Both the position numbers and the translations under genes were made by a program. Shown in pieces: positions 1 through 775 of a DNA stretch of 7,140 nucleotides. The first letter of the stretch is position 1. Each line of letters opens with the position of its first letter. This DNA is from Escherichia coli (lineage in GTDB: Bacteria > Pseudomonadota > Gammaproteobacteria > Enterobacterales > Enterobacteriaceae). The notes below the pieces were generated by a model. That model was not told the DNA's origin, did not search any database, and worked only from the letters and a program-made list of their open reading frames with translations. The stretch is from assembly GCF_003334385.1 (NCBI RefSeq), contig NZ_QOWN01000073.1; one strand, 5' to 3'.

Positions 1-775
1 GGGCTGACGCCGGAAGAGTCAGAGAACAGATACCATTTTTACTGTAAAACCGTGGCCAATATTACTTGACCACTACAAGTTAGCTGAGATGTTAAGCTGC
101 TGGCTGCATACACCTTGCCAAATCTAATCGCTGTTATCTTAACCAATTTCCAGGATACAAGGGGGCGATTACTGAGAATGCTCTCAGACTGTCACTCACC
201 AGATCGGATACGTTTACTGCTCAGGCGGATGCTTAATGCACTCTGTTCAGGTGCATTGCAGGTACGTTTTATGTACGCAGGTTATACGCCAGTTATCAGG
301 GATAACCCTGTGAGTACAACGCAATCTGTTGCTACTGGGTAGACTGGTCTGCTGATCACACTCACAGATTTATTTCACATATATGAACTCATGTGTTTGA
401 GCTCTCTTATATATTTATAATACCAATCAGACAGTCTTATCCCACCAGTGATACCTGTCGCCTGCCCACAGGTCACGGGCTGATGCACCACAACCGCCTT
501 CAAAAACAACTCTGCAATTATCAGAACGCCAGTTTTCCCCTTGTCTCACGAAAGTCCTCCCTCCTTTATCACGTGCGCGTGCGGAAGCATCGTTTCGCAA
601 CAATCACCCGACATACCGGTACGGCTCAGCCACCGCAATCCCCCCGTTTATCTCCTGACGGTCACATTCCCGATTATTTTTTACGTTTTTCCCCGGTTGT
701 TATGCCGGGGAAGGTGGTGCGTTGTTTTCATCACCAACGCCGGTTGAGATTAACAACATCCGGAGGAACATTTTC

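Follow-up and report, generated by a model that had tools for sequence, protein, structure and literature searches.

Organization of the DNA upstream of alpA

The window, a stretch of 7,140 nucleotides from an Escherichia coli contig, carries at 776-982 an alpA gene whose product RefSeq names a helix-turn-helix transcriptional regulator. Bases 1-800 are identical to E. coli strain G1/2, and thousands of other E. coli chromosomes match them too. The gene belongs to a family of CP4-type islands with a recurrent order: zinc-ribbon genes and an inovirus-Gp2-family gene on the minus strand, a 65-aa ORF on the plus strand, an hha-like gene on the minus strand, ~720 gene-free bp, and then alpA (plus), a ~200-aa ORF (plus) and yfjI (minus). 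The usual neighbour of alpA in this family is hence the divergent hha-like gene ~720 bp away, and not the integrase that the first-pass annotation had named as one typical neighbour; in the window lineage hha is a pseudogene that lies beyond an insertion sequence (IS), outside the window. In K-12, the alpA of CP4-57 has just 43 bp upstream and no leader of the kind described below, while CP4-44 is without alpA. Only distant AlpA relatives were found in the phage collection. Further along the window, at 5559-5764 on the plus strand, there is a full-length Rfam match to the IS102/IsrC small RNA (256 bits, E = 9e-50), placed between a GTPase gene and the Ag43 gene in the same arrangement as in K-12 CP4-44.

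The following features were delineated, with the basis of each in brackets:

1-69, plus strand: last 22 codons of a transposase gene (orfB) and its stop TGA at 67-69 (RefSeq CDS WP_085968792.1)
~51-77, plus strand: right terminal inverted repeat of the IS, ending ...CCACTACA (alignment of the IS ends)
78-80, no strand: 3-bp target-site duplication AGT of the IS (empty site in Nissle 1917)
78-187, no strand: right part of a 189-bp lineage-specific insertion (variant comparison)
188-645, no strand: non-coding hha-alpA intergenic spacer (common to paralogous CP4-type islands; approximately synonymous rate)
388-421, plus strand: AT-rich block with the 14-nt repeat CTCATGTRTTTGAK, then TATAAT at 416-421 (variant alignment)
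428-690, plus strand: C-rich, G-poor, rut-like stretch on the alpA-sense strand (C:G = 92:45)
646-775, plus strand: constrained alpA control region (slower than alpA third codon positions)
677-685, plus strand: T6-ACG box, 5' edge of the conserved leader (box count across leaders)
685-769, plus strand: predicted nested leader hairpin (minimum free energy (MFE) fold of 676-790, RNAalifold consensus, covariation count)
689-712, plus strand: local hairpin 689-696/705-712 with loop UUGUUAUG and its invariant UAUG (perfect arms)
776-982, plus strand: alpA, 68 aa, Phage_AlpA domain PF05930 (E = 6.3e-9, residues 13-59)

On balance we consider it likely that 1-775 is a mosaic of four non-coding pieces, including a putative Shine-Dalgarno (SD)-sequestering alpA leader, rather than the remains of a lost gene. 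The first piece (1-77) is the right terminus of an IS3-family insertion sequence related to IS911; the second (78-187), part of an older 189-bp insertion that later became the target of that IS; the third (188-645), the spacer separating the divergent hha-like gene from alpA and drifting almost neutrally; and the fourth (~646-775), the alpA control region, of which the last ~95 nt are taken as a 5' leader. Most of 1-775 is ordinary, and the ~100-base predicted leader before alpA is a modest lead of some interest. The region illustrates how insertion scars pile up in the intergenic DNA of islands; the supposed missing gene would never have existed.

An IS911-related element and an older insertion scar

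Reading frame 1 has no stop before the TGA at 67-69, and the window had been suggested to start within the 3' part of a gene lying upstream. Extending the sequence upstream in G1/2 bears this out: the same DNA is annotated there as the CDS of an 'IS3 family transposase' (WP_085968792.1) ending at L001 8069, which is window 69, and the frame is accordingly real. The gene so recovered is a transposase rather than the integrase or P4-like gene proposed.

Set against the IS-free allele of Nissle 1917, the element spans L001 6820-8077 of G1/2, 1258 bp in all. Its termini are TG...CA (left TGTAGTGGCACAC..., right ...CCACTACA) and align with each other over ~27 nt as imperfect inverted repeats. AGT stands on both flanks, the empty site in Nissle 1917 (L002) reading CCAGCC-AGT-TAGCTG, and the RefSeq annotation of G1/2 joins the transposase CDS from two pieces through a 'programmed frameshift'. 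Judged by its ends, its 3-bp duplication and its two-ORF frameshift transposase, the element is of the IS3 family. Identities to K-12 IS911B of 82% over 77 nt at the left end and 66% over 553 nt in the 3' part make it an IS911 relative. It shares with IS911 and the IS3 family all of the above characters as well as an outward TTGACC, but with a transposase 3' part just 66% identical, and with 1258 bp in place of the 1250 bp of IS911, it is a relative and not IS911 itself.

The outward-facing, -35-like TTGACC lies at 66-71 in the right repeat and resembles the -35 that IS911 contributes to its own circle-junction promoter; together with GATGTT at 88-93 it could make up a candidate weak hybrid promoter aimed at alpA. 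The same transposase (WP_085968792.1) also occurs just 3' of alpA in strain 2014C-3655 (L008 3290-4475), where it cuts a DUF932 gene, which points to an IS active within these islands.

Bases 78-187 continue into a second, older scar. They are the right part of a 189-bp insertion corresponding to L002 (Nissle 1917) 7922-8110, which extends to window 187, is bounded by a 7-nt direct repeat CTCTCAG (right copy 181-187) and is present, at a query coverage of at least 80%, in 832 genomes. Where the window lineage has these 189 bp, other variants of the island module run uninterrupted as ...GGTCTCTCAG|ACTGTCAC... Within the insertion, 102-169 is 88% identical over 68 nt to strain LD39-1 (L100 2501-2568), in which the stretch has a zinc-ribbon gene on one side and a pseudogenised IS110-family transposase gene on the other. 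Since intact loci have a different sequence upstream of that zinc-ribbon gene, the 68 nt probably derive from the end of another mobile element. Other strains carry the same stretch by itself, next to a pseudogenised IS110-family transposase gene and at that element's non-coding end. The earlier suggestion that the region is a decayed remnant therefore holds for 78-187, an insertion scar with an IS110-adjacent match, but not for 188-775, which is conserved intergenic DNA.

A predicted fold that sequesters the alpA ribosome-binding site

Over 601-775, 11 of the 13 variants compared are 86-100% identical to the window, against 81-87% for the third codon positions of alpA; the two lower ones are L006, with a replaced piece, and L098, homologous only from ~646. 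More generally, the E. coli variants that diverge furthest (L098, L011 and L006) regain homology at ~646, and the few other species that share this DNA do so from 677 onward. By this yardstick, ~646-775 is the only part of the spacer whose rate of change falls below that of the third codon positions in alpA.

The constrained region contains the hairpin ttccccgg (689-696)/ccggggaa (705-712) that had been pointed out from the sequence, and the pairing is exact, with eight perfect pairs and an 8-nt loop, 64 nt before the alpA ATG. This 8-bp form is specific to one lineage. T689 and G709 are found only in the window lineage, all other variants having C689 and T709 and in consequence two stem mismatches; the local stem is down to 4-6 pairs in most variants, and only its core CCGG:CCGG (4 bp) is conserved across them.

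A longer, nested hairpin is the MFE fold of 676-790 in all E. coli variants, at -33 to -37.4 kcal/mol. It is built from the pairings 685-692/762-769, 696-702/751-757, 704-708/740-744 and 713-719/729-735, and its strand 762-769 contains the alpA SD, GGAGG (762-766). The local hairpin competes with it, since both use the same 5' strand. With C689/U709 the nested fold is preferred by ~8 kcal/mol (-37.2 against -28.9 for the local one), while in the window allele the two stand at -33.0 and -32.6 kcal/mol and the local hairpin dominates once more flanking context is folded. T689 and G709, the two lineage-specific substitutions in this 100-nt stretch, replace both mismatches of the local stem by Watson-Crick pairs and make the nested alternative less stable; either change by itself, at 689 or at 709, gives an intermediate value. 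The SD is correspondingly unpaired with a probability of 0.001-0.009 in nine other variants, a value as low as which none of 40 shuffles attained, and with a probability of 0.25-0.37 in the window allele, which is no lower than shuffles (17/40). In terms of predicted ribosome-site accessibility this is a rise from ~0.002 in the sister alleles to ~0.25 in the window, or ~100-fold. Of 5426 E. coli genomes, 676 have the allele of the window as their best match, at 99% identity or more.

Among themselves the E. coli variants are too alike for true covariation statistics. The fold was examined in a class of 17 related leaders that share the CCGG segments, that of the window among them. The nested fold pairs 76.6% of cells in these leaders against 26-45% when slid, and scores a covariation of 0.208 against 0.120 in shuffled alignments (0/500 as high) and at most 0.132 when slid, the structure having been taken over from a single member and the core pairs never varying. 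One of its pairs switches between A-U (12 leaders), U-A (3) and U-G (1). The local hairpin together with a 3' hairpin showed no covariation above controls in the same 17 leaders.

We propose that a putative leader RNA, starting after the T6-ACG box, would form the long nested hairpin and pair 685-692 with the SD region, and that this pairing would hold translation of AlpA, here seen as an excisionase-type island regulator, at a low level, as folding and covariation suggest. T689 and G709 would make the leader of the window bistable, with its ribosome site more accessible than that of the sister islands by the factor given above. The local hairpin is then best read as a lineage-strengthened competitor of a predicted ribosome-site-sequestering leader fold. 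It had earlier been offered as part of the alpA promoter or operator; it does lie within the alpA control region, but an RNA element explains it better than a promoter.

Against a leader running over 676-775 from a single 5' end, a scan of the plus strand predicted no sigma-70-like promoter, and the TATAAT at 416-421 has no -35 at a spacing of 15-19 nt. This TATAAT also reads TTTAAT in two variants. On inspection the T6-ACG box was rejected both as a -35 (TTTACG), there being just 14-15 nt to a conserved TATGCC, and as a -10, the key A and T being missing.

Leaders of alpA genes in other Enterobacterales

We surveyed the leaders of the best 80 of 189 loci with close AlpA relatives in other Enterobacterales, obtaining 84 distinct leaders overall. 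Almost none of the 80 loci share upstream DNA sequence with the window. In 58 of the 84 distinct leaders, a run of T or A followed by AC stands 87-100 nt before the ATG, as compared with 3.6 of 84 in shuffles when it is allowed anywhere. This box is shared across many genera despite unrelated flanks and occurs also before the distant CFT073 gene c1169.

In several sequence classes of these leaders the SD lies in a predicted helix, with a partner strand that differs by class. Classes other than that of the window maintain complementarity, also with the SD, by different sequences, namely CCTTCC/GGAAGG, TTCTCC/GGAGAA and CATCGTTT/AAACGATG, and in one class a three-helix junction with five compensatory pairs also takes up the AUG. 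Median SD accessibility in the 84 leaders is 0.19 against 0.27 in shuffles; sequestration is not universal among them, with many classes no better than shuffles.

These observations allow the tentative proposal, which may well turn out otherwise, that a modular 5' leader, so far undescribed, is common to the alpA genes of islands and satellites in enterobacteria. It would have a T/A-run box ~95 nt upstream and helices that exclude one another and either cover or free the ribosome-binding site, thereby gating translation; the window allele would be a natural two-substitution variant towards the 'open' state. We found no description of a structured leader for alpA in the literature. Prophage-like islands and phage satellites are excised or induced by AlpA-type proteins, whose silencing is poorly understood. 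If the proposal is true, the leader would gate translation of the very protein that starts these events; a conserved leader occluding the ribosome-binding site would be a concrete and easily testable control point for AlpA, and natural alleles that differ by two bases in predicted openness make testing straightforward.

The c1169 locus of CFT073 is of separate interest for its strong published Fur ChIP-seq peak. Upstream of it (L101 3342-3366), a Fur box of 14/19 lies at the peak, ~100 nt before the T6-ACG box, and this position of Fur box and peak further upstream implies that the c1169 box is within the transcribed leader. Fur control of the window alpA was considered and rejected, since c1169 is another gene of the AlpA family, encoding 98 aa, whose DNA shows no similarity to that of the window. 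The best Fur-box match in the window, 12/19, equals that of shuffles.

DNA sites, recoding and known regulatory systems

The same conserved segments might act as DNA. The CCGG cores, being palindromic and invariant, cannot tell the nested and the local fold apart, and they could equally well be protein-binding sites. The four segments (693-696, 705-708, 741-744 and 760-763) would then, together with the T6-ACG box, be sites for a regulator such as AlpA on its own promoter, with the hairpin as an operator palindrome. There is a precedent in the E. coli phage-inducible chromosomal island (PICI) EcCIMP1, whose AlpA is reported to be a helper-phage-induced, positively autoregulating master regulator with a promoter region responsive to the helper phage; the region upstream of that alpA is regulatory, and -449 to +50 was used as a reporter (PMC11773190). 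The two loci are alike in the long control region upstream of alpA, but the present gene belongs to a CP4-type island, in which its neighbour is not an integrase but the divergent hha-like gene ~720 bp away. CCGG cores and box are indeed invariant at the DNA level in the 17 leaders, yet other leader classes maintain the complementarity, SD included, with different sequences, and the pair between the second and third segments that flips from A-U to U-A favours RNA pairing. No promoter could be placed relative to such sites, and one of the four CCGG sites overlaps the ribosome-binding site. We accordingly regard an operator as rather unlikely, and a leader RNA that sequesters the SD as the better account of 676-775.

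A second possibility is that the box and hairpin serve recoding or translational coupling. A heptamer, a 5-nt spacer and a hairpin is the layout of known -1 frameshift sites, and T TTT TTA (677-683) followed by the local hairpin resembles it; no conserved upstream ORF reads through the heptamer, though, and some boxes with an A-run do not make a slippery heptamer. Alternatively, translation of a short ORF from the loop AUG (702-704) could open the SD. The UAUG of the loop is invariant in the 17 related leaders, and in most members of the class the short ORF either ends on or shortly ahead of the alpA start codon or continues in frame into alpA: in the window it runs for 25 codons to a TGA at 777-779 that overlaps the alpA start (ATGA), while in sister variants two 1-nt deletions bring it in frame with alpA. 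Against this, the loop AUG has no SD before it, and neither the peptide nor its frame relative to alpA is conserved. Both forms of this idea seem improbable to us.

Leaders that sequester the SD are known from the 'fold-back inhibition' of the IS10 transposase mRNA and from RNA thermometers. The predicted alpA leader is like them in having an anti-SD strand that lies upstream and pairs with the ribosome-binding site, and a competing local hairpin that can release it; unlike theirs, its structure is a prediction. The int-alpA RNA motif, an Rfam family listed among E. coli small RNAs (PMC12370729), is likewise a conserved RNA element tied to alpA genes of mobile elements, but the Rfam models match neither the window nor 16 related alpA loci (E up to 1), and the leader is not of that family as now modelled. 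The AlpA of Pseudomonas aeruginosa, a Q-like antiterminator that is much larger and has its DNA-contact residues near 128-142, was rejected as a guide to the 68-aa protein, being unrelated-looking and far larger (PMC9371919).

The conserved non-coding spacer

The first-pass annotation had set against its own reading the alternative that the DNA before alpA is ordinary conserved intergenic sequence, and that is what 188-775 proves to be. Bases 78-775 are matched in 3523 of 5426 complete E. coli genomes, in up to six copies per genome, and among the matches listed nearly all records have no annotated feature under the match. Two blocks of homology can be distinguished, 181-400, common to the hha-linked variants, and ~405-1047, common to all variants; the gene after alpA is far more divergent. 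Identity to the window over 405-600 is 75-94%, against 81-87% at alpA third codon positions, which is approximately neutral. The block 188-676 is absent from the best 80 of 189 alpA loci of other species, bar one probable E. coli contaminant. Given that divergent variants regain homology at ~646 and the few other species from 677, 188-645 looks like a hitch-hiking spacer.

The earlier statement that no ORF here is credible stands. Among eight variants, variable columns fall on the three codon phases as 11/10/10 in 181-340, against 7/4/23 in alpA, and the counts are likewise flat across 405-775; no codon periodicity or conserved frame was found among relatives over 78-775. None of seven candidate ORFs matched a PHROG or NCBIfam family at an E-value of up to 0.1. 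It is thus very improbable that 78-775 is a decayed protein-coding gene, for instance an integrase or a P4-like gene. Such a gene might be read into the stop-free frames at 393-779 (128 codons) and 115-342 (75 codons), into the foreign, scar-like DNA of 78-187, or into the 88-aa hypothetical protein that PGAP calls in some genomes on the minus strand at the equivalent of 369-635; but the open frames vary between variants, broken differently in each by indels of 1, 2, 5 and 14 nt, a pseudogene call is absent from nearly all genomes among the matches listed, and all three plus-strand frames are open over 660-745 as a result of C-rich DNA.

Nor does the spacer behave as an unannotated structured non-coding RNA or small RNA, a reading we hold to be just as remote. 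What speaks for it is that ~600 unannotated bp recur, 80-93% identical, in as many as six island copies of one genome; the divergence is nevertheless close to that of synonymous sites. Folding of 426-790 is no better than that of shuffles (z = -1.14 and -0.29), and the z-scores of 426-790 and 181-400 are not significant on either strand. Rfam searches of the whole window (E up to 1) and of 78-1100 (E up to 10) returned nothing in the region beyond chance snoRNA-like matches, a scan of the region gave no terminator-like site, and among the loci compared homology is confined to E. coli islands. Direct or inverted repeats that might be iterons amounted to short matches at chance level.

That the hairpin before alpA is an intrinsic terminator or attenuator is hardly credible, for its GC-rich 8-bp stem 64 nt before the ATG has its T-run (677-682) on the 5' and not the 3' side, with an A-run after the stem on the other strand, shrinks to 4-6 pairs in most variants and was not picked up by the terminator scan.

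A compositional feature of the spacer is the bias of its alpA-sense strand over 428-690. A skew as strong is seen in only 1.6% of 263-nt windows from ~50 kb of island DNA, all variants retain it, and each 78-nt window from 351 to 701 has a C:G ratio of 1.7-2.25. Taking rut sites as at least ~80 nt of C-rich, G-poor, poorly structured RNA, 428-690 has the composition of one, with a fold z of -1.14. Owing to this bias, an untranslated transcript that crosses the spacer would be expected from base composition to be a good Rho substrate. The 263-nt C-rich, G-poor and weakly structured stretch before a gene is similar to what is seen in the Rho-dependent termination of long untranslated leaders, but here the likeness to rut systems is one of composition alone.

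The spacer also varies in its repeat tracts. The window has one full (388-401) and one degenerate (402-415) unit of CTCATGTRTTTGAK, whose copy number ranges from 1 to 3.8 among island variants (for example L004 2797-2849) and alters the spacing of the upstream DNA, and at the equivalent of window ~606-612 a poly-C tract has grown to ~15 C in variant L096.
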